The position numbers were made by a program, and so were the translations under genes. Below, in pieces: positions 3,300 to 64,000 of a DNA stretch of 64,000 nucleotides (position 1 is the first letter of the stretch; the number at the start of each line of letters is the position of its first letter). The DNA lies in the NCBI GenBank assembly GCA_903934015.1, contig CAIZMI010000034.1, positions 20,378-84,377 on the forward strand, written 5' to 3'. A model generated the notes under the pieces. The model saw only the letters and a program-made list of their open reading frames with translations. It had not been told where the DNA came from and made no database searches. The DNA comes from an uncultured bacterium. Lineage in GTDB: Bacteria > Patescibacteriota > Andersenbacteria > UBA10190 > CAIZMI01.

Positions 3300-3440
3300 C
3301 GCCCACTTCCGATGTGGTGCCGAGGCACTTCATCGGAAGTGGTGTAGGTTAGTAGCGTCGTAACGACGATACGCGAACCTAAACCACATCGAAGGAGATG
3401 CTTGACCCTGCGAGGGTTGCCGATAAAGCACCACCTTCGA
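3300..3440. other. three consecutive stem-loops (possible terminator or structured RNA) downstream of comF
   Basis: Three inverted repeats: cacttccgatg…catcggaagtg; ggtt…cgtcgtaacgacg…aacc; ccacatcgaagg…ccttcgatgtgg with inner accctgcgagggt. Confidence 0.4.
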
Positions 3441-3580: not shown

Positions 3581-3711
3581 GGAGAGGTGCCAGAGTGGCC
3601 GAATGGGCGTCCCTGGAAAGGACGTAAGTCCGAAAGGGCTTCGCGAGTTCGCCCACGCACCACGCAGGGTGCGGGGCGCCCAGAACCCAACGTGGTTCTG
3701 TGGCGAATCTC
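3581..3711 (+). pseudogene. tRNA-Ser(GGA) pseudo-copy with a 54-nt insertion in the T-loop and a divergent 3' end
   Basis: The first 70 nt are identical to the intact tRNA-Ser downstream (ggagaggtgccagagtggccgaatgggcgtccctggaaaggacgtaagtccgaaagggcttcgcgagttcg). A 54-nt hairpin-containing insert follows, then aatctc, then sequence that cannot pair with the acceptor 5' strand. Confidence 0.55.
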
Positions 3712-3751
3712 CTACCTATTCTTTAAAACTTTAGAAAAAATAATCAGCTTT

Positions 3752-3837
3752 GGAGAGGTGCCAGAGTGGCCGAATGGGCGTCCCTGGAAAGGACGTAAGT
3801 CCGAAAGGGCTTCGCGAGTTCGAATCTCGCCCTCTCC
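3752..3837 (+). tRNA. tRNA-Ser (anticodon GGA), type II with long variable arm
   Basis: Acceptor ggagagg/cctctcc; anticodon loop ctGGAaa; variable-arm hairpin gtaagtccgaaagggcttc; T-arm gcgag-ttcgaat-ctcgc. Confidence 0.85.
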
Positions 3838-3848
3838 GCAAAAATAAT

Positions 3849-3877: not shown

Positions 3878-3885
3878 GCCTGAGC

Positions 3886-3950
3886 AACCAACTGCTTGGC
3901 TCACGGCGAGATTTGAACGGCAAGCGATATCTCGCTCGACTGAATACGAA
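3886..3950 (+). repeat. tRNA-linked module 2, Ser copy: hairpin containing aactgcttg, then an antisense Ser T-arm (gcgagatttgaac), then a gaacggcaagcgat hairpin
   Basis: Same architecture as 6305-6365 downstream of tRNA-Lys (caactgcttg…gaatcgaacggcgagcgat). Confidence 0.5.
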
Positions 3951-4398: not shown

Positions 4399-5157
4399 AT
4401 GTTTTACTACATTTTAATCGCCATCGTCGTCCTAATTTTCAGCTCTCTACGCATCATCAAAGAATACGAGCGTGCGGTAGTGTTCTTCCTTGGTAAATAT
4501 CAAGCCGTCCGTGGCCCCGGTCTCATCTTTCTTATTCCTGTTTTGGAGAAAATGAACAAGACCACCCTTCGCACAATCACGATGAATATTCCATCGCAAA
4601 AAATCATTACCCGTGACAACGTCTCTATCGATATCGCAGCGGTTGCCTACTATCACATTGTCGACCCGATGAAATCGGTAATTGCCATCGAAAACGTCTA
4701 CGATGCCGTGAATCAAATCAGTCAAACGACCGTTCGTAATGTTGTTGGTCAGTTTACACTCGACCAACTGCTCGCCCAAACCAGCGCCATCAATGTCCAA
4801 ATCAAGAACGTAATCGATGAACACACTGAACCATGGGGAGCGCAAGTAACAGCAGTGGAAATAAAAGACATCGTTCTGCCGGACAACATGCAACGCGCAA
4901 TGGCGAAGGAGGCCGAAGCCGAACGCGAACGTCGCGCCAAGGTTGTTGCTGCCGAAGGTGAATTCCAAGCTGCCCAAAAACTCGGCGAAGCGGCGGATTT
5001 AATCGCCGCCCATCCGGTGGCATTGCAATTAAGAACACTCCAAACAATGGCGGAAATCAGCGTGGAGAAAAATTCCACAATCATCTTCCCCGCCCAATTT
5101 ATGACAACAGTCCAAGAGGCAGTAAAAATGATATCCAATGACGGAATAATTAAATAA
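4399..5157 (+). CDS. SPFH/band-7 (stomatin/prohibitin-like) membrane protein
   Basis: N-terminal TM helix, SPFH core, and a C-terminal coiled coil (AEAERERRAKVVAAEGE). Confidence 0.85.
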   Translation: MFYYILIAIVVLIFSSLRIIKEYERAVVFFLGKYQAVRGPGLIFLIPVLEKMNKTTLRTITMNIPSQKIITRDNVSIDIAAVAYYHIVDPMKSVIAIENVYDAVNQISQTTVRNVVGQFTLDQLLAQTSAINVQIKNVIDEHTEPWGAQVTAVEIKDIVLPDNMQRAMAKEAEAERERRAKVVAAEGEFQAAQKLGEAADLIAAHPVALQLRTLQTMAEISVEKNSTIIFPAQFMTTVQEAVKMISNDGIIK

Positions 5158-5888: not shown

Positions 5889-6084
5889 AAAAACAAAACA
5901 TACAACTAACAACAAATGAAGGTTGTATTTTTTCATAAAATAAAGCAGAATAGGTTATCGTTTTACGCGCTCGTAGCTTCCCACTCCGCTCAATCTCTGG
6001 ATTGAGCTACGAGGGACAAGTATTGGAATAATAAACCATTGCCTGTCCACCGTAGCTCCGTTCCGCAGAATGGAGCGAAGGTGG

Positions 6085-6157
6085 GCGCTCGTAGCTCAAT
6101 TGGCAGAGCAGGGGCCTCTTAAGCCCAAGGTTGAAGGTTCGATTCCTTCCGAGCGCA
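6085..6157 (+). tRNA. tRNA-Lys (anticodon CTT)
   Basis: Acceptor gcgctcg/cgagcgc; D-arm gctc-aattggc-agagc; anticodon loop ctCTTaa; T-arm gaagg-ttcgatt-ccttc; discriminator A. Confidence 0.85.
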
Positions 6158-6426
6158 CTCTCGTTGATTAGTTTTGCGAAGCAAAACAATCCAAACGTAC
6201 ATAAAATAGCTCCACGTCCTGTGGAGCTATTTTACACAAGAATCAATGAACTCCGAAAGTTTGCGACAAGAGACGCAAAATTTCGGAGCTACCTTTGATT
6301 GCAACACAACTGCTTGTGTTGCGTGAAGGAATCGAACGGCGAGCGATGTTATGCAGAACCGCTCGCCGATGGCCAGATACTTGCGTATCAACGCGAGTTT
6401 CGAGGCCGATTCCTTCCGAGCGCACT
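6158..6426 (+). repeat. tRNA-Lys-linked miniature element ending in a 20-nt direct repeat of the tRNA 3' end
   Basis: cgattccttccgagcgcact occurs at 6140-6159 (inside the tRNA) and again at 6407-6426. In between are the conserved module 1 (two hairpins, acgtacataaaat, ttttacacaagaatca), a ctccgaaa…tttcggag hairpin, the aactgcttg hairpin, and an antisense T-arm gaaggaatcgaac. Confidence 0.6.
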
Positions 6427-6761: not shown

Positions 6762-6799
6762 CTGTATGTAACCACCCACAGGTTAAAGCAAACAACGCA

Positions 6800-6833
6800 T
6801 TAAGGTCCGACCCTTGCAAAGGTCGGACCTTAA
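6800..6833. repeat. 34-bp near-perfect palindrome (copy 1 of 2)
   Basis: ttaaggtccgacccttgcaaaggtcggaccttaa. The second copy at 50788-50821 is perfect. Confidence 0.7.
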
Positions 6834-7022
6834 TCACGAAGAACACAACACGACGGCAATATTTGCTGATACAAACAAAATTCCTCCACCCGTGAACGGT
6901 TACTCCCGTATCTTCTGTTACAAACCGAAACCGACGGGGCGACAAAACAAACCCTCGCTATCCCTGTGACTAAGCGTCAAAAAACGATAAATTTTTTTAT
7001 TATGTCTGCCCCCCAACCTCTC

Positions 7023-9883: not shown

Positions 9884-11053
9884 CTATCGATTTCCTTTTG
9901 CCCGATTGTGCGTCTTACACAACATCTCACAATTTTTAGCTGTTGTTTTACCACCCTTGCTCCACGCCGATACGTGATCGGCTTCCATTTCACCAAAACT
10001 CCAAATTTTACACTTGTTAGCATCATGGCCAATTACACAATTTGAGCAATTTGATTGACCTTTTTTCTCTGCTTTAGCGGTCTGTGTTGAGTAAATACTT
10101 CTCTTTGTTGCTTCATCAAAGATTCGAACGTCAAGCAATTTTGTGTCAGTGGAGCCGCCGAGAATATACTCAAAAATGCCTTTGCGATTTTTGACGTACG
10201 GATCACCATAGAGCTTTCGTACCTCGCCTGTCACCTTAACGGGATCATAAGCTTTCTTATGGTATTGCTCATATAGTCGCCCCCACTCCAGTCCTCGCAT
10301 CTCACTTTCAACATCTATAAACACACTTGAAACCCAATCAACTACACTACCGAAATACCTTTTCAGCTCGGCAACATTTTTATCAAAACGATGTCGGCTC
10401 ATATAATCGCCAACGTTGCCTTTGCTTACCCAATCAAGCGCACGCTCCAAAAAATCCTGCCTGTTAACACTACCCGCTACATACGCGCCCCATTTTTGGA
10501 TGTTGGCATTTTGGCTATTGCTAAACTCTTCTTTACCAAGCGTCACAAATGGCCCAGAATACACGGCGTTAAGCAACTCCTGATTATTAAGTGGAACTCC
10601 GGCGATGTTGATTGTTTTAAACCATTCTTTTATCTCGCTTTCTTTCCCTTCGCATTCGTAAATAAGCAATGTTGTTATTAAAATTTTATCCTGCTTGTCT
10701 TTTGCCATACCACTAAAATTTTGTGGATTGCCGTTTTCATCTTTGATGGCAAATTTATCAGTCACAAAACGTCCAATACTTGTTATACGTTGTTGCCCAT
10801 CCAAAACTTCCAGCCCATCGTCATCGACTTTATTAAAATAAATTAGGCCAATCGGATAGCCCTTAAGGATTGACTCAATAACAGCTACTTCTTTTTTACC
10901 GCCGTCGGAAGAATATATGTAGTTGCGCTGATATTCTGGCTGAATCGTTAATTTGCCAGACAAGCCAAACAACCCCTTGCCCTCCAATTCGTTATAAACG
11001 AATCCTTCGCAAATAGCTTTGATGGTAATTTCGATTTTCAAAGTAGTTTTCAT
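9884..11053 (-). CDS. DUF262 (ParB-like, DGQQR motif) plus C-terminal HNH endonuclease; GmrSD-like nuclease
   Basis: The [11 protein letters not shown] motif is in the N-terminal half. The C-terminus has an HNH signature ([14 protein letters not shown]…[11 protein letters not shown]…[15 protein letters not shown]). The start codon at 11053-11051 lies 1 nt after the upstream methyltransferase stop. Confidence 0.7.
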
Positions 11054-11054
11054 A

Positions 11055-12230
11055 TTATTTTTTTTTATGTCTAATGAGTACTCTTTGATAAACTTTTTCA
11101 TGTAAACCAGCTCGAATAACTACTCCACTTGCATTCAAATCATAAACTCCCCTTTTTTTGAATTTATCTAAATATGCTTGCTTACATTCCGTTGATTTGT
11201 ACACTTTTGTTTTTAGTTTATATAAATCTTCGTTTTCACACATCCCAACAATACCAAACTGTTCTGGGGAGTGTTTATCAAGAAAACTAATCGGTACACC
11301 CATTAATCCGTTGTAATCACTTGGAATATTTTTTACTAAAGATACTTCTAAGGCATTATAATTATCGTATTTTTCAAATGGTTTTTTCGTTACAAACTTA
11401 ATAATCTCGGCTTCAGTCATGAGTGGCAACGGCTGATGACGACGTCCATGATCAAGATTGGTGAACCAACGAACACCTTGCACTCGGGTGATATAAACTT
11501 TCTTACCTCTCTCATTTGTTTTAATTTCACGAACTTGATCCAAATTAGCAATCTTTTCGGGTATCTCAAAAAACATCGCGCCAGCATTGACTTTGTAATT
11601 GTTGCCCAACCACACTTTATTCTCTTTAATTAGTGGAAATATTTCTTTGTAGGTAATTGCATTCAAGTTGCCAATGATCAAAAACTTTTTATCATAATCA
11701 ACAAGTTGTTTTATATACTCGCGAAACAGGCTAAACGGAGGATTTGTTACCACAATATCAGACTGCTTCAGAAATTCTATAGATTCATTGCTACGGAAAT
11801 CGCCGTTTCCTTTAAGCAGAGTTGTTACATTTTGATCCTGCCTCAACAAACACTCTATATCCTCAAGGTTTACTGCACCATCATTATTTAAATCTTTTAC
11901 CTCATTGATTTCAATTTTGAACGGCTGTTTTCTAGTGAACCTTCTTAATCCTTCTATCCCAGACAACGGAAATATAGTGCCGGTAATAGGTGATGGAACA
12001 TAACTTGTAGTAATAAGTTTTTTAAGTCCAATATTATTGAATTTTAATACAAAGTATTTGAAAAAATTACTTTCATACGGATCGTCACAGTTGCAATACA
12101 CTACTTTGCCTCGAAACACATCAGGATTGTATTCCAAATACGCTTCAATCTCTTTCTGGATATCTACGAATTGCGTATAGAACTCGTCGTTCTTTACTCT
12201 TTTTGCGTTAGTAAGATTTTTGTTTGCCAT
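11055..12230 (-). CDS. DNA methyltransferase, adenine-type (EcoRI-methylase-like N-terminus, NPPF catalytic motif)
   Basis: KNDEFYTQ near the N-terminus and the motif IV sequence [13 protein letters not shown]. Confidence 0.75.
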
Positions 12231-12465: not shown

Positions 12466-12552
12466 ATTTCATTTGCGGAGAGGGTGGGATTCGAACCCAC
12501 GAAACCCTTGCGGGTTTAATGCATTAGCAAAGCATCCTCGTAGGCCTCTTGA
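12466..12552 (-). tRNA. tRNA-Ser (anticodon GCT), type II
   Basis: Minus-strand ggagagg acceptor; long variable-arm hairpin aaaccc-gcaa-gggttt; T-arm gtggg-ttcgaat-cccac. The anticodon loop ttGCTaa is closed by a weak T-T pair. Confidence 0.75.
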
Positions 12553-12580
12553 GTACCTCTCCTTGCGTAAAAACCATACC

Positions 12581-13633
12581 TTATTTGTTCATCTTTCTCA
12601 AGTGCTTTGGATTATGAGAACCAATAAGTTCTATGTATTGTTTTACAGCTGCCCTACTCTCGATAAAAATATCTCGATCCCGCATATTTGCCCAAACACC
12701 GATTTTGCGGAGAGATTCGTGAACTGAATTAAGCAAAGGCGGAGAAGCGGATGTAAAACTAATCTTTTTGTAGCGATAATCTTTGCCTCTTATACGATAT
12801 TGATGCCAATAAACCGAACCATCCGTATCAAAAAGACCTCGAATACAAGGAATTAAATAATTCCGCTTTCTCTTGATCCACATTGGAATATCTATTTTTT
12901 GTCTAATTTTGTTTCCCTTAACCAGACCCAAGTGTTCTATACAAAAGTGAACCATCTCCGTCCGGCTTACGCGATAATCGTTTGCTAAAGCATCTTTACT
13001 AATTATCACGCTCGGTCTAACTCCAAACAATTTCTGAATTAAACTGCATACAAAGATACCGTATTCATGATCATCATACCTGTGTAACGTAACAGTTAGT
13101 TGATAACGGGTTATTCCACCATCACCAAGCATCAATCCGACAAACTCGGCTAATTCCGGTGATTTCATAGGCTTTCTAAACGGCAAACTTTTCCAAAGTA
13201 TTTTGTGTTCTTGATATTTCCCTTTCTCATTCCACCATTTTGTCCACTGCACTCGGCGATAATCCTCATCCATACCAATCCGTCCATATTTTTTAAACAT
13301 TGCTTTACCACCCAAACTGCCAATTTTTTCAAGGCGTTTATTCCATTTTAATAAACTGGCAGAGGTAGGTATTTGTACTCCGCTTTTTTGAGCTAGCGTT
13401 TTAGCGTGGATAAATGACATGTGATACTTCTCTCTCTTCCAATCACAAAGCGTACGCCTATTAATGGCCAACAAACCGGCTAAGAATGGTGTTGATACAT
13501 TTAATTTTGAAGCAACGTTTTCAATAAATTTGCGTTGCTCTTCAGGTTCAAAAATGATCCTGTCTAACTTATCCACTTCATCTATCATGTGGTAATTATA
13601 CAACAAATACGAACATTTTACGAACGTCATTGT
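12581..13633 (-). CDS. double-motif LAGLIDADG homing endonuclease, free-standing
   Basis: Two LAGLIDADG motifs, FVGLMLGDGGI and IRGLFDTDGSV. The start is taken at the internal Met (MTFVKC…) because the 5' extension of the ORF covers a conserved structured non-coding element. Confidence 0.7.
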   Translation of the reverse strand, partial: TMTFVKCSYLLYNYHMIDEVDKLDRIIFEPEEQRKFIENVASKLNVSTPFLAGLLAINRRTLCDWKREKYHMSFIHAKTLAQKSGVQIPTSASLLKWNKRLEKIGSLGGKAMFKKYGRIGMDEDYRRVQWTKWWNEKGKYQEHKILWKSLPFRKPMKSPELAEFVGLMLGDGGITRYQLTVTLHRYDDHEYGIFVCSLIQKLFGVRPSVIISKDALANDYRVSRTEMVHFCIEHLGLVKGNKIRQKIDIPMWIKRKRNYLIPCIRGLFDTDGSVYWHQYRIRGKDYRYKKISFTSASPPLLNSVHESLRKIGVWANMRDRDIFIESRAAVKQYIELIGSHNPKHLRKMNK

Positions 13634-13639
13634 TTTTGC

Positions 13640-13737
13640 ACAATCCGATTCTTGTGCAAAACAGCATTCGCGTTTAGCGAATGCTGTTTTGTGTACATTT
13701 TTTTGTTTCACTAAGCGAAACAAATCTCGAGTGTCCC
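13640..13737 (-). repeat. conserved tRNA-linked module 1 (Arg-locus copy)
   Basis: The minus strand reads ctcgagatttgtttcgcttagtgaaac…aatgtacacaaaaca, a hairpin (cagcattcg…cgaatgctg), then ttttgcacaagaatcgga. The element at 63660-63760 after tRNA-Glu is near-identical, and the Lys copy at 6158-6245 is related. Confidence 0.6.
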
Positions 13738-13830
13738 CGGCAGGACTTGGCCTCGCCTCAAAAATACTGATGTATTTTTGGGCTGGCCACCGCCTCGTGT
13801 TATCTTCGAATAACACTCCGGCGTTCAAGT
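13712..13830 (-). repeat. palindromic element: inverted copies of the tRNA-Arg 3' end (15 bp, ccccggcaggacttg) flanking a two-hairpin core
   Basis: The core (cgccggagt…hairpin…acgaggcggtggccagccc…hairpin…gaggcgaggcc) also occurs inside the interrupted tRNA-Arg copy at 14035-14137. Both hairpins show compensatory base changes between the two copies. Confidence 0.55.
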
Positions 13831-13889
13831 CCTGCCGGGGGATTTAGAAAAAAGACAATCGCACCGCGATTGCCATTTTTCTAAATCTG

Positions 13890-13963
13890 TGTCCCCGGCA
13901 GGACTTGAACCTGCAACCTTCAGCTCCGCAAGCTGACGCTCTGTCCAGTTGAGCTACAGAGAC
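13890..13963 (-). tRNA. tRNA-Arg (anticodon GCG, inferred)
   Basis: Acceptor gtctctg pairs with cggggac through two G-U pairs. D-arm gctc-aactggac-agagc; anticodon stem tcagc/gctga with loop ttGCGga; T-arm gcagg-ttcaagt-cctgc; discriminator A. Confidence 0.7.
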
Positions 13964-14017
13964 ATAATTAGTCTCTTTTTTGTAATGATATCATTTTAAT
14001 TCTTTTTTGAAATCTAC

Positions 14018-14190
14018 CAAGCCGGCAGGACTTGGCCTCGCCTCTCGGAGTGTTGATACACTCCTCGGGCTGGCCACCGCCTCGTATTGCTTGCGAGCAA
14101 TACTCCGGCGCTGAAAAACCATTAAGGGTTTTTCAGCCTGCAACCTTCAGCTCCGCAAGCTGACGCTCTGTCCAGTTGAGCTACAGAGAC
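14018..14190 (-). pseudogene. interrupted tRNA-Arg copy: nucleotides 1-53 identical to the intact gene, a ~105-nt structured insert in the T-loop, then 12 nt of tRNA identity before diverging
   Basis: Plus strand cctgcaaccttcagctccgcaagctgacgctctgtccagttgagctacagagac matches the intact copy. The insert replaces ttc of the T-loop. The 3' acceptor strand is cggcttg, which cannot pair with the 5' strand. Confidence 0.55.
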
Positions 14191-16626: not shown

Positions 16627-16736
16627 TGAGCGTAAACTTATAAGTCAGATCTAAATATAATTTACATAGAAACTACATAAGACGCAAGACAAGAGTCGCG
16701 AATAAAAATACCATCCGTGGTCTTGCCTAGTGTTTT

Positions 16737-16916
16737 AGGCAACTGACTTAAATAAATTGTCAATATTCTGTTCAATACGCTTTGAATACGAGTACTGCGA
16801 CCGAACGAAAGCTTGAAGCGTACTAGCAGTACGTTAAGAGATTTAGTGACCGAGCAGTGCTTGTAGTCAAAGATGTATAGAAAATAAGATGGATAGGTTA
16901 TTTACGTCAGTCGCCT
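16737..16916. repeat. MITE-like 180-bp element with ~19-bp terminal inverted repeats (copy 1)
   Basis: About 80% identical over its full length to 57719-57898. The ends are aggcaactgacttaaataa and ttatttacgtcagtcgcct. Confidence 0.65.
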
Positions 16917-18269: not shown

Positions 18270-18566
18270 ATGCAAAATACTATAAAAAGACAGCACTCAC
18301 CAGAGTTCAAATCGCAAGTAGCAATAGAGGCGATAAAAGAAGTTGAGACGATTGCACAGATCGCATCCAAGCATTCAATCCACCCGACCCAAATCAACAA
18401 GTGGAAAAAAATAGCACAGGATGGTTTGGCCATATTGTTCTCCGGCAAACAAGATGTCGAGCTGAAGAAAAAAGATGAGCTGATTGAACAGTTATACAAA
18501 AAAATCGGTAAACGTGAGGTCGAACTTGATTGGCTTAAAAAAAAGACTGGCCTTCTCGACAACTGA
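18270..18566 (+). CDS. IS3-family transposase OrfA (HTH plus leucine zipper)
   Basis: MQNTIKRQHSPEFKSQVAIEAIKE… matches the IS3 OrfA N-terminus. A slippery A6G run sits at 18539-18545. Confidence 0.8.
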   Translation: MQNTIKRQHSPEFKSQVAIEAIKEVETIAQIASKHSIHPTQINKWKKIAQDGLAILFSGKQDVELKKKDELIEQLYKKIGKREVELDWLKKKTGLLDN

Positions 18567-19386
18567 AAAACGCAGTTTGATCGAGCAAGAAAACCCCGCG
18601 CTTTCCATCGCTTCGCAATGTTCTTTATTAAAACTTCCGCGTTCCACATTCTACTTTCCGCCTAAGTTAATTCTGCCGGAAAAGTCCGTTACGCTGATGC
18701 ATAATATCGATGAGATCTATACTGATTTCCCGTACTATGGTGGCAGAAAGATTAAGGTGGAATTGGTAAAACGTTTCAAGAAGATTGTCGGTCGCAAAAC
18801 AATCCGCAAGCTGATGCGGATCATGGGTCTGGAAGCGATCTATCCGAAGCCAAACACGAGCAAACCAAATCAGCAACATGCTACTTACCCGTATCTCCTG
18901 AAGGGTATCATCGCCGCTTATTCCAATCATATTTGGGGCACTGATATCACATACATCCGGGCTGGCAAATACTGGTTTTATCTTTCGGCAATTCTTGACT
19001 GGCATTCCCGTTATGTTGTCAGCTGGACGCTGTCCGAAAATATCGATACCGCGCTTTGTTTGGAAACTCTGGAAAAAGGACTGGCAATTGCCAAACCCCT
19101 TATCCACAATTCCGATCAAGGCAGTACATATACGGCGGAGGAATATCTAAACCATCTCAAGCAAGCCGAGGTGCAAATCAGTATGGATGGTGTTGGCAGA
19201 TGCATGGACAACATCTTCACGGAACGATTATGGCGGACGGTGAAATACGAAGAAGTCTATCTGCACGCGTACGGCAGTTTCAAAGAAGCTATGCAATCGT
19301 TGAAATTATACTTTAATACATACAACGAAAAACGGGTGCATCAAGCACTCGAATACCGCACACCGGCAGAAGTGTACTTTAAATAA
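18484..19386 (+). CDS. IS3-family transposase OrfB (DDE integrase core, rve)
   Basis: DDE region …HNSDQGSTYTAEEY…ERLWRTVKYEEVY… OrfB is in the +1 frame relative to OrfA, not the expected -1. Confidence 0.75.
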   Translation: MNSYTKKSVNVRSNLIGLKKRLAFSTTEKRSLIEQENPALSIASQCSLLKLPRSTFYFPPKLILPEKSVTLMHNIDEIYTDFPYYGGRKIKVELVKRFKKIVGRKTIRKLMRIMGLEAIYPKPNTSKPNQQHATYPYLLKGIIAAYSNHIWGTDITYIRAGKYWFYLSAILDWHSRYVVSWTLSENIDTALCLETLEKGLAIAKPLIHNSDQGSTYTAEEYLNHLKQAEVQISMDGVGRCMDNIFTERLWRTVKYEEVYLHAYGSFKEAMQSLKLYFNTYNEKRVHQALEYRTPAEVYFK

Positions 19387-50787: not shown

Positions 50788-50821
50788 ATTACGTATCTTA
50801 AGGTCCGACCTTTGCAAAGGT
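50788..50821. repeat. 34-bp perfect palindrome (copy 2 of 2)
   Basis: ttaaggtccgacctttgcaaaggtcggaccttaa. Confidence 0.7.
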
Positions 50822-50844
50822 CGGACCTTAATGCGATTGTTTTT

Positions 50845-52612: not shown

Positions 52613-53923
52613 TCAATCTTCTTCCACTGATATATCCGCTCCCAGATCGGCGAGTTTTTCAACTAAGTGGTCAAATCCCCTTTCCAGTTTTTCCACACCC
52701 TTAATTCGTGTTGTGCCATCAGCAATCAATGCCGCGAGTATGTAGGCAAAAGCCGAATGAATATCTGAAATATTCAGATTACCCCCTTTAAGGGCTACTG
52801 GCCCTTTTATTATCGCGCTGTGTTTTTCGCCGGTATTTTTAAAACGACACTCACTGCTTCCCAAACATTCAGCAAAAATCTGAATATCCGCCCCCATTTT
52901 TACCAAATCATCCGTGTAACTAAAATGCTGTTCATGCACCGTTTCGTGTAAAACTGATGCGCCATTGCATTGCGTTAATACAACCGAAAAAGGCGGTTGC
53001 CAATCAGTCATAAAACCGGGATGTACGCCGGTTTCCAAGTTAATGGCTTTTAGTTCACCTTCATGCGAAAAAGCAATACCCTCATCAATGACGCTAAAGT
53101 TTCCACCGATTTTTCTAATCACATTCATTAATGTTTGATTTTCATCTTGTACTGCACCTTTAATAAAAATACTTCCCTGTGTTGCGATAGCCACGCACGC
53201 AAATGAAGCCACCTCAATACGATCCGGAATAATGCTGTGTTCTGCCCCATTAAGAAAACCAACACCTTCAATCACAAACACCCTTCCGGGTTCGTGAAAA
53301 ATTACCGCGCCCATCTTCTGCAATAAATTCGTCAAATCAATAATTTCCGGTTCCACGGCCACGTTTTTTATGACCGTCTTCCCTTCCGCTAAAACAGCTG
53401 CCAGTAATAAATTCTCAGTTGCAGATACACTCGGATATGGAAGTACGATTGAAGCACCTTTCAATTTTTCGGAACGAAAAAAAAGCGTATTATCTTTTTC
53501 CTCCACTTTCGCTCCCATCGCTTTGTAACCTTCAATGTGATAATCCACCGGTTTCTCCGCGCCTTTTAACGAACCATCCAACGGAATTTCTGCGTGACCA
53601 AAACGATGTAAAAGTGGCGCCGCCAAAAGCATTGGCAAACGATTTCTGCCGTGCCACTCCACCGATGCTCTACTATCCCGTACCTCCGGCGTCGTTAAGT
53701 GCATAAACTTATTTTCCTTATCCCAAGTAATTTGGGTACCGATTTTTTCCAGCATTTCCATCGTACTCTGCACTTCTCCAATATCAGGAACATTCTTTAG
53801 ACGAATCGGATCAAACGAAAGCAGTGACGCAATCATCATTTTTGTGACTGCGTTTCTGGAACCACTGACATTTACTTGACCGTGTAATTGGTTTCCTCCT
53901 TTTATGATGTATGTTTTTGGCAC
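52613..53923 (-). CDS. murA: UDP-N-acetylglucosamine 1-carboxyvinyltransferase (paralog 1)
   Basis: MPKTYIIKGGNQLHGQVNVSGSRNAVTKMMIASLL… and a conserved catalytic-loop region. Confidence 0.9.
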   Translation of the reverse strand: MPKTYIIKGGNQLHGQVNVSGSRNAVTKMMIASLLSFDPIRLKNVPDIGEVQSTMEMLEKIGTQITWDKENKFMHLTTPEVRDSRASVEWHGRNRLPMLLAAPLLHRFGHAEIPLDGSLKGAEKPVDYHIEGYKAMGAKVEEKDNTLFFRSEKLKGASIVLPYPSVSATENLLLAAVLAEGKTVIKNVAVEPEIIDLTNLLQKMGAVIFHEPGRVFVIEGVGFLNGAEHSIIPDRIEVASFACVAIATQGSIFIKGAVQDENQTLMNVIRKIGGNFSVIDEGIAFSHEGELKAINLETGVHPGFMTDWQPPFSVVLTQCNGASVLHETVHEQHFSYTDDLVKMGADIQIFAECLGSSECRFKNTGEKHSAIIKGPVALKGGNLNISDIHSAFAYILAALIADGTTRIKGVEKLERGFDHLVEKLADLGADISVEED

Positions 53924-53959
53924 ACGTTAATATTATCACATGTGCCGATTAACCGTAGA

Positions 53960-54001
53960 CCACTCCAGGAGCGGAGCAACCTTGCTCCGCTCCTGGAGTG
54001 G
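53960..54001. terminator. long palindromic hairpin (ccactccaggagcggagcaa…ttgctccgctcctggagtgg); probable terminator of the 54129-54944 gene
   Basis: 20-bp stem. A related hairpin lies at 55138-55179. Confidence 0.45.
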
Positions 54002-54128
54002 TGCAAAGGTTCGTTTAGAATCAATCAAACATCCCCCGTCGCCAAGGCTATGGGGGATTATCTTCTTTGAAAAGAAAAAAATCTCCCGTTCGAAGAACGG
54101 GAGAGAAAGAACACTCTGAATGAGCAAA

Positions 54129-55055: not shown

Positions 55056-56504
55056 TTATATTACAAACTCAATCGGTTCCGGGGGTAATGGAATTTGTTC
55101 TTTTTCAGAATACTCTATCGACACTTGCGAACCAGCACCACCTACGAGGTGGAGCAAGTTTGCTCCACCTCGTAGGTGGTCGGAGGCTTCATCCACCACT
55201 TGAATATCCGCGCCTAAACCGCGCAGTTTTTCGACCAATGATTCGTAACCACGTTCAAGTTGATCCACACCACTGATGACCGATGTCCCCTGCGCCATCA
55301 AGGCAGCAATGACATAAACAAATCCTGCCCTCAAATCCGGCACAACCAAATCCACGGCTTTCAAATTAACTGGACCGCGCACTGCTACGCTGTGCTGGTA
55401 ATTCATTCCTTGAAAACGACAGTTATGACCGCCTAAACAATCGGTAAATAAATTTACGTCCGCGCCCATTTTCTTCAAGCCATCAAAATATCCAAAACGT
55501 TTTTCGTGCACCGTTTCATGCACGACCGACATGCCTTCCGCCTGCATCAAAAGCAACGAAAATGGCGGTTGCCAGTCGGTCATAAACCCCGGATGTGTTC
55601 CGGTTTCCATCGTTACGCCTTTCATCTGACCGGTCGAATAAAACCAAATACCGTCATTACTAATTTCAAAAGCCCCGCCGATTTTTCGCAACATATTCAA
55701 GAACGTACGCATACCATGTTGACTTACACCCTTAACAAGAACACTTCCCTTCGTGGCAATTGCCGCGCAAGCAAAAGAAGCTGCCTCAATTCGGTCTGGA
55801 GCAACGCGATGCTCTGCTCCATTGAGTTTAGCCACTCCTTCAACAACAAATGTCCGTTCCGGTTCCAAGAAAATAATCGCGCCCATCTTCTGAAGCAAAT
55901 CAACAAGCTCAATAATTTCCGGCTCGATAGCGGCATTTTTAATAACCGTTTTTCCTTCCGCCAAAACAGCACCAAGCAATAAACTCTCTGTCGTCATGAC
56001 GCTTGGGTATGGCAATTCAATCACCGCGCCATGTAGTTTGTTTGCCTTAAACACTATCGTGTTGCCATTCTCAACTATTTCCGCGCCCATTGCCCGGTAA
56101 CCAGTGATGTGGAAATCAACCGGTCGCGGACCAATCTTGTCGCCACCTTCTATGGGAATTTCGGCATGACCAAAACGATGCAAAAGAGGACCGGCCAATA
56201 AAATTGGAATTCTGTGTTTGCCGGAAAAAACAGCTGGAACTGTACTGGTTTGCAATGTCGGAGAAACAAGATGCACAGATGATTCCTTTGTGCCGTCCCA
56301 CATTGCCTGCGCGCCAAGGGAATTGAGCAAACTCATTGTTAACTCAACTTCCCCGATATGAGGGATATTAGAAAGTTTCACCGGTTCTTTTGTTAGAAGC
56401 GAAGCCACCATCATTTTTGTAACGGTATTTTTAGAGCCACCAACGGTAACAGACCCCTTTAAAGGGTTTCCACCAGTTACGATATATTGATTTGACATAG
56501 ACAA
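55056..56504 (-). CDS. murA: UDP-N-acetylglucosamine 1-carboxyvinyltransferase (paralog 2) with ~45-aa C-terminal extension
   Basis: MSMSNQYIVTGGNPLKGSVTVGGSKNTVTKMMVASLL… The extension (…HLRGGANLLHLVGG…) is translated through the palindromic hairpin at 55138-55179. Confidence 0.85.
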   Translation of the reverse strand: MSMSNQYIVTGGNPLKGSVTVGGSKNTVTKMMVASLLTKEPVKLSNIPHIGEVELTMSLLNSLGAQAMWDGTKESSVHLVSPTLQTSTVPAVFSGKHRIPILLAGPLLHRFGHAEIPIEGGDKIGPRPVDFHITGYRAMGAEIVENGNTIVFKANKLHGAVIELPYPSVMTTESLLLGAVLAEGKTVIKNAAIEPEIIELVDLLQKMGAIIFLEPERTFVVEGVAKLNGAEHRVAPDRIEAASFACAAIATKGSVLVKGVSQHGMRTFLNMLRKIGGAFEISNDGIWFYSTGQMKGVTMETGTHPGFMTDWQPPFSLLLMQAEGMSVVHETVHEKRFGYFDGLKKMGADVNLFTDCLGGHNCRFQGMNYQHSVAVRGPVNLKAVDLVVPDLRAGFVYVIAALMAQGTSVISGVDQLERGYESLVEKLRGLGADIQVVDEASDHLRGGANLLHLVGGAGSQVSIEYSEKEQIPLPPEPIEFVI

Positions 56505-57674: not shown

Positions 57675-57718
57675 ATAGAAACATTATAACAAAAACCCTA
57701 CAAAAATACCAACTACTT

Positions 57719-57898
57719 AGGCGACAGACATAAATAACATTTCCATATTCTGTTCAATACGCTCTGAATACGGTTACTGCGATTGAACAAAATCTTGAGG
57801 CGTACTGTAAGTACGATGAGAGATTTTGTGATTGAGTAGTAATTGTAGTCAGAGATGTAGTGGACATAAGATGGATAGGTTATTTACGTCCGTCGCCT
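57719..57898. repeat. MITE-like 180-bp element with terminal inverted repeats (copy 2)
   Basis: Ends are aggcgacagacataaataac and gttatttacgtccgtcgcct. The element abuts the valS stop codon. Confidence 0.65.
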
Positions 57899-63587: not shown

Positions 63588-63659
63588 GGCCCTATCGTCT
63601 AACGGCTAGGACACGAGACTTTCATTCTCGTAATCGGGGTTCGATTCCCCGTGGGGCTA
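63588..63659 (+). tRNA. tRNA-Glu (anticodon TTC)
   Basis: Anticodon stem cgaga/tctcg with loop ctTTCat; T-arm cgggg-ttcgatt-ccccg; acceptor 3' strand tggggct; 4-nt variable loop. Confidence 0.8.
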
Positions 63660-63964
63660 CTCGAGATTTGTTTCGCTTAGCGAAACTATATAATGTACAC
63701 AAAACAACCAAACATCCCGTTTGGTTGTTTTGCACAAGAATCGAAGAACTCCGAGACTCTAGGCGCTCGATAGCGCCGAGTCTCGGAGCAGCATTGATTA
63801 ATGCCCTTTACGGGTGTTTTTAAATATCTTCTGTCGAATATGGGGAATCGAACGGTATTTTGAAAACATGAACTGCTTCATGTTTTCAAAAACCGAGGCT
63901 TCGCAGGAGGAGTTGCGCATCGAGCCGAAGCGAGGCGCAGCGACGGAAGCGAAGGATTCCCCGT
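63660..63964 (+). repeat. tRNA-Glu-linked miniature element: conserved module 1 plus hairpins, an antisense T-arm, and a 19-nt direct repeat of the tRNA 3' end
   Basis: Contains ctcgagatttgtttcgcttagcgaaac…aatgtacacaaaaca, a hairpin, then ttttgcacaagaatcgaa. A hairpin ctccgagactc…gagtctcggag follows, then the antisense T-arm ggggaatcgaac. cgattccccgtggggctac occurs at 63641-63659 and again at 63946-63964. Confidence 0.6.
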
Positions 63965-64000
63965 GGGGCTACCAAGTAATAAAAACACCGTGCCAAAAGC

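Follow-up and report, generated by a model that had tools for sequence, protein, structure and literature searches.

The tRNA genes of a tiny-genome bacterium (Parcubacteria/CPR) carry tRNA-end palindromic insertion elements: small structured DNA elements without coding capacity, which form a previously undescribed family and of which no account was found in the literature. The elements lie inside the T-loop or directly behind it, and the tRNA 3' end is copied in both direct and inverted orientation, with one functional tRNA gene always kept beside them. In the window, the whole 64,000-nt stretch of DNA that was analysed, four of the five tRNAs share this architecture: besides tRNA-Arg(GCG), the carriers of shared modules are tRNA-Lys, tRNA-Glu and tRNA-Ser(GGA). 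The same modules occur at no fewer than 15 tRNA loci in related Parcubacteria contigs, and the elements turn over between related genomes.

Elements at the tRNA genes of the window

The modules of the family are an E trailer, which begins directly after the discriminator N73; an inverted arm, the complement of positions 53/54 to 65–72; a structured core at the place of the T-loop, of three sequence types, with two hairpins and conserved single-stranded linkers; and a direct copy of tRNA positions 56/57–73. The inverted and direct arms are separated by 70–105 nt of conserved hairpins, and the loops carry the conserved motifs ATCA, CTGC and GAGC(C)GAAGCGA. Units measure approximately 100–300 bp, and the inverted arm is present in every one. 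In one form the core is located inside a real tRNA copy, which is thereby inactivated; the host can bear this loss, as the tRNA comes from a tandem duplicate that has a promoter of its own. In the other, the core is held in a 'minihelix' composed of an inverted and a direct copy of the last ~17 nt of the tRNA, which is harmless in its position downstream of the intact gene. Units can be stacked in tandem, each ending with another tRNA 3'-end copy.

The tRNA-Arg(GCG) locus contains both forms, and all three minus-strand pieces reported in the first-pass annotation (an interrupted tRNA-Arg, an intact gene and a palindrome with the same core) are present:

14137–14190, minus strand: A copy, tRNA-Arg(GCG) positions 1–53, a pseudogene identical to the intact gene (repeat D6)
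14111–14136, minus strand: left module of the T-loop insert, hairpin CTGAAA...TTTCAG
14034–14110, minus strand: core type 1, copy a, comprising P1, linker GGTGGCCAG, P2 (loop ATCA) and CGAGGCC
14022–14033, minus strand: aagtcctgccgg, a 12-nt copy of positions 57–68 that closes the interrupted T-arm
13993–14020, minus strand: promoter-like TTGGTA-16-TAAAAT upstream of the intact copy (consensus match only)
13890–13963, minus strand: B, intact tRNA-Arg(GCG), 67.8 bits
13848–13878, minus strand: terminator-like hairpin and T-run behind the intact tRNA
13823–13841, minus strand: IR-L inverted arm, perfect complement of positions 53–70
13749–13822, minus strand: core type 1, copy b
13732–13748, minus strand: direct arm, copy of positions 57–73
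13645–13731, minus strand: E module of subfamily a, comprising CTCGAG, a hairpin and GTACACAAAACA-hairpin-TGTTTTGCACAAGAATCG (repeat I1)
12581–13588, minus strand: HTH and double-motif LAGLIDADG gene, context, outside the element

The A copy retains its native upstream region, a flank that matches the region upstream of tRNA-Arg in the sister genome, and has an Rfam score of 25 bits, under the threshold of 29. Its insert of 103 nt follows position 53; the CTGAAA..TTTCAG start right behind G53 recurs in two other interrupted copies, those of L207 (Arg-TCT) and L062 (Ser-GCT). Closure of the T-stem around the insert is still possible, and the sequence after aagtcctgccgg does not pair with the acceptor. 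The promoter-like box overlaps the place of the lost acceptor strand and is positioned to drive the intact copy. Copies A and B have 17 nt of 5' flank (D6) and approximately 13 nt of 3' flank (D19) in common, in agreement with the earlier suggestion that the tRNA gene was rescued by duplication. The third piece (piece D) is a palindrome of tRNA 3'-end arms around a second two-hairpin core, with a folding energy of −56 kcal/mol (z = −6.4). It had been placed at 13830–13712, which is approximately 10 nt off on the left and runs into the next module on the right, where the E module begins directly after the tRNA 3' end. The window contains exactly two occurrences of the conserved core strings, versus 0 expected, and both core hairpins differ between the copies by compensatory changes, as had been claimed.

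The remaining elements in the window are on the plus strand:

3581–3712, plus strand: tRNA-Ser(GGA) interrupted copy, comprising positions 1–57, a 53-nt two-hairpin insert (3652–3704) and gaatctcc
3882–3918, plus strand: CTGC-loop hairpin, then the tRNA-matched inverted arm ggcgagatttgaac, downstream of intact tRNA-Ser(GGA) (3752–3839)
5967–6084, plus strand: 5'-end analogue upstream of tRNA-Lys
6160–6424, plus strand: full unit behind tRNA-Lys (6085–6158), comprising E-b (6160–6289), CTGC hairpin (6301–6322), inverted arm (6324–6337), core type 1 (6338–6407) and a direct copy of positions 57–73 (6408–6424), with the native terminator next
63660–63971, plus strand: full unit behind tRNA-Glu (63588–63660), comprising E-a (63660–63789), inverted arm (63842–63853) and direct copy (63955–63971)
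63854–63954, plus strand: core type 2 of the tRNA-Glu unit (CTGC hairpin and GC-rich hairpin)

The interrupted tRNA-Ser(GGA) copy upstream of its intact gene had already been recognized, and its coordinates are 3581–3712, with the intact gene at 3752–3839. The occurrence of the family at tRNA-Lys and tRNA-Glu, the E trailer module and the wide spread in Parcubacteria go beyond the earlier claims. The 5'-end analogue at tRNA-Lys contains a copy of positions 1–12, an inverted copy of positions 4–16 and a hairpin, ccaccGTAGCT..ggtgg, abutting the gene; a similar arrangement is found upstream of tRNA-Arg in L216.

Arm boundaries are consistent across the family. The complement of position 53 or 54 forms the end of the inverted arm, and the direct arm begins at 56 or 57, so the bottom strand overshoots by 2–4 nt (GAA[C]), as seen in all 15 units tabulated by hand (15/15); within the unit stem, GAAC occupies the inner end and not the outer one. 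Every interrupted copy has its acceptor 3' strand absent or replaced, and the intact copy is always next to it. Degraded copies are common, many being truncated, chimeric or equipped with degenerate arms (truncated or chimeric examples are L207, L210-Trp, L062 and L082-Arg), and 5'-half tRNA duplications with T-loop inserts and a new promoter were also found.

The adjacent LAGLIDADG gene is a conserved host gene and no element cargo, contrary to the link that its position had implied. The two motifs stand (Pfam LAGLIDADG_3), with the catalytic aspartate of each (D171 and D271) invariant in 25 homologues, and 2DCH is the closest relative of solved structure (E = 5e-5); the start, given earlier as 13633, is likelier at 13588, yielding a homologue-like protein of 335 aa (13588–12581 rather than 13633–12581). 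Of the 60 Parcubacteria loci scanned, 55 have the gene directly upstream of tRNA-Ser(GCT), and two more have it upstream of tRNA-Ser(TGA). The gene is free-standing, with neither the placement in an intron, intein or mobile cassette nor the sporadic distribution of a mobile endonuclease gene. In L215 and L216, both tRNA-Arg and its elements are found on the opposite strand; it is thus the tRNA, not the LAGLIDADG gene, that the elements accompany. The conserved pairing of HTH-LAGLIDADG and tRNA-Ser(GCT) is an unexplained association.

Recurrence and turnover in related genomes

In related contigs the architecture is present at Leu, Arg-TCT, Arg-TCG, Gly-CCC, Gly-GCC, Thr, Tyr, Trp, Val, Lys, Ser and Arg loci, a biased sample fished with the LAGLIDADG protein or the E pattern. 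Comparison of core copies, as the first-pass annotation had proposed, shows that the core is conserved elsewhere and covaries; it is therefore not confined to the two positions at the tRNA-Arg locus. The arms match the local tRNA throughout: identical core types, with arms fitted to each, occur at more than ten tRNA species, and the same design of arms and core is fitted to at least 13 different tRNAs. Distant Parcubacteria have analogous units with other cores. Among 165 tRNAs, extra copies of the tRNA 3' end within 500 nt downstream were detected in direct orientation for 24 and inverted for 23, compared with 7 and 1, respectively, upstream, with some matches to neighbouring tRNA genes included on both sides. 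An independent ENA assembly (L081) reproduces the arrangement at the tRNA-Arg locus and ten contigs carry the flanking protein, which disposes of the concern that the interrupted copies are assembly chimeras.

Comparison with sister genomes shows that inserts and units vary between the window and its relatives (L082 and L216). The E modules are 94–97% identical at non-orthologous tRNAs between the window and sister-lineage contigs, and the LAGLIDADG and NUDIX genes are 73–74% identical between the same genomes. The orthologous tRNA-Lys is followed by E-b in the window and by E-a in L082; the orthologous tRNA-Arg has kept the inverted arm, with a different core in each of the window, L216 and L082; and the window lacks units at tRNA-Ser(GCT), where L082 has two. 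As the modules are 94–97% identical across hosts of ~74% identity and differ at orthologous tRNAs, they are read as mobile, and their turnover and spread are more recent than host divergence. The identity of E across genomes could in principle also come from selection rather than transfer. Allele comparisons are divided on the crossover point: L001 favours the tRNA end (73|74), and L206, L051 and L210-Trp favour the loop (56|57). Neither an excised or circular form nor an empty and filled allele pair at one locus in the same population was seen.

No ORFs are present inside the arrays, and Pfam searches of the 25 larger window ORFs detected no recombinase, integrase, HUH protein or reverse transcriptase. 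Long-range direct repeats (>500 nt) and cargo-bearing versions were searched for and none was found. Rfam searches of the window, the three element types and related loci, at gathering and permissive thresholds, returned only tRNAs and chance microRNA-like hairpins. A VanW-like ORF between two L213 units was ruled out as a recombinase. The sole transposase in the window (IS3-type, 18484–19386) shows no link to the elements.

Fold, covariation and strand preference

All units fold as three-way junctions composed of P0, P1 and P2, and the same fold is shared by unrelated core sequences. Pairing in P2 is kept in 63 of 63 cells over nine copies, with full covariation; the covariation score of 1.38 compares with 0.33 in shuffles, none of 500 reaching 1.38, and with at most 0.35 in slid controls. 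Equal-length stems were used for this analysis because a MAFFT alignment of the whole P2 regions was structurally inconsistent. On the tRNA-sense strand, wobbles comprise 19 internal G·U versus 1 A·C (p = 4e-5), compared with 9 versus 8 on the antisense strand, and the summed folding energy is −1341 kcal/mol for sense and −1256 kcal/mol for antisense. Folding therefore prefers the tRNA-sense strand. The fold, the covariation and the sense wobble bias agree with either RNA or single-stranded DNA, which sequence cannot separate. A common fold across unrelated cores, together with conserved loops, could equally fit a host RNA function.

Explanations and relation to known systems

The reading that we favour, at somewhat better than even chances, is that the elements are a family of small modular non-coding mobile elements specialized on Parcubacteria tRNA genes; such elements would be non-autonomous and tRNA-targeting, with a single-stranded intermediate. 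Propagation would proceed via an intermediate of sense polarity, either ssDNA or RNA, the stem of which would mimic the 3'-end duplex of the tRNA gene and serve as a recognition or recombination site, similar to CTX attP or attC. Insertion would occur at the T-loop (56|57) or the tRNA end (73|74), with catalysis in trans by an enzyme encoded outside the element, and recombination between direct copies would generate arrays and clean deletions. One protein cannot read at least 13 arm sequences, so the fit to each target would presumably require base pairing or templated copying.

A bolder and rather doubtful version is that of a self-retargeting tRNA-gene parasite, whose stem would be copied from the 3' end of the target by fold-back synthesis or hairpin capping, at a 3'-staggered break over G53-T54-T55-C56. 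The sense single strand would be a mimic of the tRNA 'top half', and the cutter might be the HTH-LAGLIDADG protein or another T-arm-reading host enzyme. With a stem copied from the target's own 3' end, one family could colonize every tRNA species. Further mechanisms were considered and discarded: a primer-binding-site-like inverted arm, as the arm stops before the CCA end; a TnpB/IscB guide-RNA-like reading, for which the nuclease is absent and a guide against the intact essential tRNA would be self-destructive; IS91-type targeting of GTTC and simple fold-back at the T-stem, neither of which reproduces the observed junctions; and an IS200/IS605-type orientation rule, as the GC skew has one sign, yet units are on both strands, following tRNA direction.

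An unlikely, though plausible, alternative to mobility is that each unit is a host-functional RNA, a part of the tRNA 3' trailer forming a junction RNA that acts on tRNA biology, possibly as a decoy or substrate of RNase P, RNase Z or the CCA-adding enzyme, or as a switch, with the tRNA 3' end and the downstream copy as alternative pairing partners of the inverted arm. The sense-strand folding preference, the P0/P1/P2 architecture with unrelated cores across distant Parcubacteria, the conserved loop motifs, the start of E at the expected RNase Z cut after N73, and the presence of a unit at most tRNAs of the lineage are all consistent with this. However, the units lie behind terminator-like hairpins without a promoter of their own, many are truncated, chimeric or have degenerate arms, and no Rfam family matches them; tRNA-Ser(GCT) has two units in the sister genome and none in the window, orthologous tRNAs have different modules, and insertion in real T-loops destroys a tRNA copy. 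A decayed att scar, in which a phage, plasmid or island integrase crossed over in the T-loop and the interior was lost, is improbable, and the earlier suggestion of scars of repeated integrase crossovers is weakened accordingly: neither an integrase nor cargo is present, the units measure 100–300 bp, and the inverted arm is always there. The remains would be E as the attL arm, the inverted arm and core as the attR arm, and the displaced tRNA 3' end. Direct 3'-end repeats starting in the T-loop and a restored gene are the classic tRNA-integrase signature (Williams 2002, as cited in PMC9897764); tandem arrays look like successive integrations; and in the unrelated viral contig L217 a genuine prophage was seen whose long direct repeats look like a tmRNA 3' end. 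In the elements, a tRNA 3' direct repeat is indeed present at either end, one end having an intact tRNA, but neither recombinase and cargo nor their remnants lie between the repeats; an integrase, cargo or a long island was seen at none of more than 25 units, the E pattern has 0 matches in 2.9 million viral contigs, and fitting of arms and core to at least 13 tRNAs, covariation with strand-specific folding, and 5'-half duplications with T-loop inserts all argue against scars. A normal integrase core site has a 6–8 bp overlap between two inverted binding sites, with which the 70–105 nt between inverted and direct arms are incompatible.

Break repair after LAGLIDADG cleavage is less credible still. 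The T-loop would be cut with a 4-nt 3' stagger over G53-T54-T55-C56, and the core would be captured at the break in interrupted copies or cap the right-hand end in palindromes. The 2–4 nt overshoot (GAA[C]) of the bottom strand in 15/15 units would fit the 4-nt 3' overhangs that LAGLIDADG enzymes leave, the catalytic aspartates of both motifs are invariant in 25 homologues, and the gene is present in every lineage in which units were seen. This co-occurrence is a sampling artefact, as most loci were fished with that protein; moreover, cutting the universal tRNA GTTC would be suicidal, end-capping does not account for inverted arms that are short and bounded by the end of the tRNA, and the unpaired GAA is possibly just a junction requirement. 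A spliced T-loop intron or an assembly artefact can be very nearly dismissed. The T-loop location and a T-stem that is still closable around the insert suit an intron, yet all interrupted copies lack the 3' acceptor strand (in A it is replaced by promoter-like sequence), the palindrome has no 5' half, an intact copy always follows, and no group I, group II or small-ribozyme match was detected with Rfam at permissive thresholds, so the intron-like reading offered earlier is not supported. To our knowledge, the archaeal splicing endonuclease is absent from bacteria. The identical arrangement in independent assemblies argues against an artefact.

The mobile elements that we favour resemble several known systems in part. 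The T-loop sublocation of tRNA-targeting integrases is attributed to Williams 2002 in PMC9897764. As in islands and prophages of tyrosine integrases that target tRNA or tmRNA genes, the 3' part from the T-loop on is targeted, a displaced direct repeat results, the gene is restored by an element-borne copy, and tandem arrays are possible. Unlike these, the elements have no integrase or cargo, are 100–300 bp long, contain an inverted tRNA-end copy and a 70–105-nt core, belong to one family at many tRNA species, and are associated with 5'-half duplications and a new promoter. CTX attP(+) and integron attC sites have inverted target-like copies around a folding spacer of ~60–140 nt and fold strand-specifically, and their stems mimic a fixed site (dif, or R/L boxes) read by XerCD or IntI. 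The elements share with them inverted site copies, a spacer predicted to fold, a strand preference in folding, the position at the unit 3' end, tandem cassette-like arrays and, on the favoured reading, a non-autonomous nature served in trans; however, their stem changes with each tRNA in place of conserved R/L boxes or a dif-like sequence, and no recombinase such as IntI or XerCD was detected among the 25 larger window ORFs.

Terminal repeats are fixed in bacterial MITEs, in REP/BIME, Correia and Rickettsia palindromic elements and in mitochondrial double-hairpin elements, and some of these elements insert into RNA genes or loops of other palindromes; we know of none dedicated to tRNA T-loops or 3' ends, or to target rebuilding. 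The elements are likewise small, non-coding, hairpin-forming, multi-copy and patchy between strains, varying between related genomes as MITEs do. Unlike in those repeats, their arms derive from the target: in place of element-specific TIRs and a short fixed TSD there are locus-specific target copies, and the duplicated segment extends from the T-loop to the tRNA end. Archaeal bulge-helix-bulge introns occur at non-canonical tRNA sites, including the T-loop. Group I introns are present in Patescibacteria anticodon loops (PMC13011429). The elements share with tRNA introns a host phylum rich in tRNA-gene insertions and, in one form, the T-loop location, but the insert is 53–140 nt without a ribozyme core, the acceptor strand has gone and the majority of copies are located outside the tRNA. 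The parvovirus ITR is a T-shaped terminal hairpin, a long stem closing two small hairpins, which is the topology of the unit fold; the likeness is in shape only, as the elements have no Rep/HUH gene, second terminus or viral genome.

Patescibacteria (CPR) have tiny genomes with a single copy of most tRNAs, and their mobile elements are thought to be few. Most tRNA genes of one lineage are nonetheless flanked, and some interrupted, by structured elements that mimic tRNA ends. If mobile, these would have a route to parasitize essential single-copy RNA genes without killing the host, by a target-matching principle absent from known transposons and integrative elements; if functional RNAs, they would add an unrecognized tier to the way in which a major bacterial radiation processes or controls its tRNAs. 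In CPR genomes, both tRNA annotation and binning will be misled by the interrupted copies and the orphan 3' ends.

Viral sequences were also compared. The locus had no megablast match in 50,697 phage records, the 44-nt type-3 hairpin had chance matches only among phages, and the type-2 loop pattern had 0 matches in viral contigs; a loose core pattern was dropped, being saturated by random matches there. No connection to the CPR elements could be drawn from the viral matches to the loop motif TATGAGCGAAGCGAATT (17–20 nt). That motif is present in 40 viral contigs, many of which represent one 5.5-kb phage family; several matches directly follow promoter-like boxes, and one lies in a hairpin behind an apparent tmRNA 3' end at a prophage border.

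The tRNA-Arg locus and other units of the window

The observation made in the first-pass annotation is confirmed and extended. Its three minus-strand tRNA-Arg pieces are all present when that strand is read and each string located: an interrupted tRNA-Arg(GCG) (copy A), an intact gene (copy B) and a downstream palindrome (D).

Features of the tRNA-Arg locus
14190–14137, minus: copy A, tRNA-Arg(GCG) positions 1–53, identical to the intact gene
14136–14111, minus: insert hairpin CTGAAA..TTTCAG of copy A
14110–14034, minus: insert core of copy A
14033–14022, minus: aagtcctgccgg, copy of tRNA positions 57–68, after the core in copy A
14020–13993, minus: TTGGTA-16-TAAAAT, promoter-consensus match positioned to drive copy B
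13963–13890, minus: copy B, intact tRNA-Arg(GCG)
13841–13823, minus: inverted arm of D
13822–13749, minus: core of D
13748–13732, minus: direct arm of D

The insert in copy A is 103 nt long and directly follows G53. Copies A and B share flanking sequence on both sides, 17 nt at the 5′ end (repeat D6) and approximately 13 nt at the 3′ end (repeat D19), which identifies them as tandem duplicates, the upstream one carrying the element in its T-loop. The sequence after A, previously described as divergent, is there and matches a promoter consensus upstream of B. After B lies a terminator-like hairpin, followed by D (folding z = −6.4), which exists, although its coordinates had been placed about 10 nt off. 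Exact strings common to the A and D cores are absent elsewhere in the window (0 expected), and both core hairpins do differ between the two copies by compensatory changes. Assembly chimerism is ruled out, since the arrangement also occurs in an independent ENA assembly (L081) and the flanking protein is known from 10 contigs.

The window was searched for additional copies of each tRNA's ends and the loci were then read; by this search, tRNA-Ser(GCT) is the only window tRNA without an element. A full unit comprises a trailer module (E), an inverted arm complementary to the tRNA 3′ end, a structured core (types 1–3) and a direct copy of the 3′ end. The E module, first spotted through a 54-nt repeat (I1), starts with CTCGAG right after the tRNA 3′ end. 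At tRNA-Lys the order is E, a CTGC-loop hairpin, inverted arm, type 1 core, direct copy of positions 57–73 and the native terminator; at tRNA-Glu it is E, inverted arm, type 2 core (CTGC hairpin and GC-rich hairpin) and direct copy. At tRNA-Ser(GGA) an interrupted copy precedes an intact one, as noted earlier, with a CTGC hairpin and inverted arm after these. Upstream of two tRNAs, tRNA-Lys of the window and tRNA-Arg of the related contig L216, there are structures in mirror image, made from the 5′ end of the tRNA.

Fold, strand and arm geometry

Every unit adopts a three-way junction fold, in which the inverted and direct arms pair as stem P0. Beyond P0 come an unpaired GAA and two hairpins, P1 and then P2, with P2 stacked on P0. 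In type 1 cores, all 63 of 63 P2 pairs are kept over nine copies, with 3–5 pair types at every position, and swapping P2 arms between different copies leaves pairing of only 46%. Covariation in the core is upheld, with a P2 score of 1.38 versus 0.33 in shuffles (reached by 0/500) and at most 0.35 with slid partners. Helix-internal wobbles comprise 19 G·U versus 1 A·C on the tRNA-sense strand (p = 4e-5) and 9 G·U versus 8 A·C on the antisense strand, whose total folding is approximately 85 kcal/mol worse. This wobble asymmetry and the worse antisense folding indicate that the structure is important as the fold of one single strand, that of sense polarity; judged from sequence, this strand may be RNA or single-stranded DNA. 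The units are located behind terminator-like hairpins, have no promoter of their own, and run in the direction of the tRNA rather than that of replication.

The arm ends of 15 units were tabulated by hand from their sequences. The last base of the inverted arm is the complement of position 53 in eight units and of position 54 in seven, and the direct arm starts at position 56 (9/15) or 57 (6/15); the inverted arm thus always has the complement of T54-T55-C56, which is missing from the direct arm. As a lead, this geometry may be what a 3′-staggered break across GTTC would leave, and may equally be attributable to a requirement of the junction. By comparison of arm alleles, the crossover may lie either at 56|57 or at 73|74.

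Relatives and turnover

The sister contig L082 encodes a LAGLIDADG protein with 71% amino acid identity and retains the VanW–NUDIX–tRNA-Arg–LAGLIDADG–tRNA-Ser order of the window. Its single tRNA-Arg gene is intact, and after it lies a remnant that consists of a short E, an inverted arm and a truncated core belonging to a different type. Behind tRNA-Ser(GCT) this contig carries two units in tandem, and its tRNA-Lys is followed by an E module. A metagenome scan with the E pattern yielded 8 loci; E starts 0–2 nt from the discriminator base in all six with a called tRNA (Leu-GAG, Arg-TCT, Gly-CCC, Gly-GCC, Thr-GGT and Lys), and an array behind tRNA-Tyr also contains E modules. After E, the usual order is an inverted arm whose sequence fits the tRNA in question, core and direct copy, with units sometimes in tandem. 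Further interrupted copies occur at Arg-TCT (L207) and, in a distant genome, Ser-GCT (L062), both with CTGAAA..TTTCAG starting immediately after G53. The same arm–core–arm arrangement with different core sequences is present in distant Parcubacteria (L001, L003, L015, L051, L056 and others). Within 500 nt of 165 tRNAs, additional direct 3′-end copies lie downstream of 24 versus upstream of 7, and inverted copies downstream of 23 versus upstream of 1, with some matches on either side coming from neighbouring tRNA genes.

The E modules form two subfamilies. The E-a module at window tRNA-Glu is 97% identical to that at Arg-TCT (L207) and 94% to that at tRNA-Lys in L082, and the E-b module at window tRNA-Lys is 94% identical to that at tRNA-Tyr (L210); the host LAGLIDADG and NUDIX genes show only 73–74% identity between window and L082. 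Orthologous tRNA-Lys genes of these two contigs have different E subfamilies, and orthologous tRNA-Arg genes keep the inverted arm with three different cores (window, L216, L082). Truncated or chimeric copies are frequent.

Separately, an unannotated sequence of ~100 nt with the end acccgagtRgcccgc is present twice on contig L213 (~3335–3440 and ~4615–4716); it has no Rfam match and no window copy. One of the two runs straight into an E module, in the manner of a stable-RNA 3′ end.

Interpretation and genomic setting

The best-supported reading is a family of non-autonomous, modular mobile elements specialised for tRNA genes. Their functional terminus would consist of a stem mimicking the tRNA end and a two-hairpin core, acting within a single-stranded intermediate of sense polarity. 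The earlier suggestion of a MITE-like element, with the tRNA rescued through duplication, was largely right, given the A/B tandem copies and the family of structured units. In how they would work, the elements come closest to the folded attP of CTX phage and to the attC sites of integrons; by outcome, the closest class is that of tRNA-targeting integrative elements (PMC9897764; Williams 2002, cited there). The family is of the same general kind as these and structured MITEs, its unusual property being direct and inverted arms derived from the target. A literature search found only the anticodon-loop group I introns of Patescibacteria tRNAs (PMC13011429) and nothing resembling these elements.

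Four other explanations were weighed. Splicing or artefact would account for the interrupted copies; the intron reading is not supported. Against decayed integrase scars, no array contains an ORF, a Pfam scan of 25 window ORFs detected neither a recombinase nor an HUH protein or reverse transcriptase, and none of 2.9 million viral contigs carried E. The trailer might also serve the host as an RNA, a reading considered alongside the sense-strand structure. Break repair by the LAGLIDADG enzyme was considered in view of the arm geometry, which would match the 4-nt 3′ overhang left by LAGLIDADG enzymes.

The window's HTH and double-motif LAGLIDADG gene (12581–13588, minus) adjoins tRNA-Ser(GCT) (12475–12562). 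Its protein has >700 homologues, invariant catalytic aspartates in both motifs (25 homologues) and 2DCH as nearest solved relative (E = 5e-5). From 80 genome loci retrieved, 60 were scanned for tRNAs (L001–L060): a same-strand tRNA-Ser(GCT) follows the gene by ~20–170 nt (mostly 20–40) in 55, and tRNA-Ser(TGA) instead in 2. This conserved pairing marks a fixed, syntenic host gene, not roaming cargo. In the relatives L215 and L216, tRNA-Arg is on the opposite strand, and both D and E go with it; the proposed link between gene and elements is not borne out. The CGN arginine tRNA of the window carries a GCG anticodon instead of the ACG (inosine) that bacteria usually have; a GCG tRNA-Arg lies near the gene in 24/60 loci, with Arg(CCG) additionally in two.

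As a whole, the window is an ordinary stretch of Patescibacteria/Parcubacteria chromosome, with genes for ClpB, ComF, VanW, NUDIX, aminoacyl-tRNA synthetases and TsaD among others. Directly after tRNA-Ser(GCT), genes for an EcoRI-type adenine methyltransferase and a GmrSD-N/HNH endonuclease (9884–12230, minus) probably form a restriction-modification/defence islet that was inserted beside the tRNA; in L082 a gene for dehydroquinate synthase takes this position. Just one transposase is recognisable in the window, an IS3-family ORF (18484–19386, plus; HTH_21 and rve integrase core), and it shows no link to the tRNA elements.

Other repeats were also observed. A 182-nt intergenic repeat (16735–16916 and 57717–57898, minus; 82% identity; no Rfam match), upstream of a VanW-like gene and a 168-aa ORF, could on sequence grounds be a leader/regulatory RNA or another repeat family. 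A near-identical 38-nt perfect hairpin (TTAAGGTCCGACC..GGTCGGACCTTAA) occupies two distant intergenic sites (6796–6835 and 50798–50835). Two paralogous EPSP-synthase-family genes (MurA/AroA type; 53573–53651 / 56145–56223, ORFs 52613–53923 and 55056–56504, ~1 kb apart) are each followed by an intergenic perfect 21-nt hairpin (53959–54002 and 55137–55180). Core types 2 (window 63922–63933) and 3 (L001/L003) have the loop motif GAGC(C)GAAGCGA in common, and the longer string TATGAGCGAAGCGAATT occurs on 40 IMG/VR contigs (L217–L256), including one 5.5-kb phage family. Several of these sites lie just downstream of promoter-like boxes; a single one comes after a hammerhead-like CUGAUGAG..CGAAAC, and another is in a hairpin behind an apparent tmRNA 3′ end at a prophage border.
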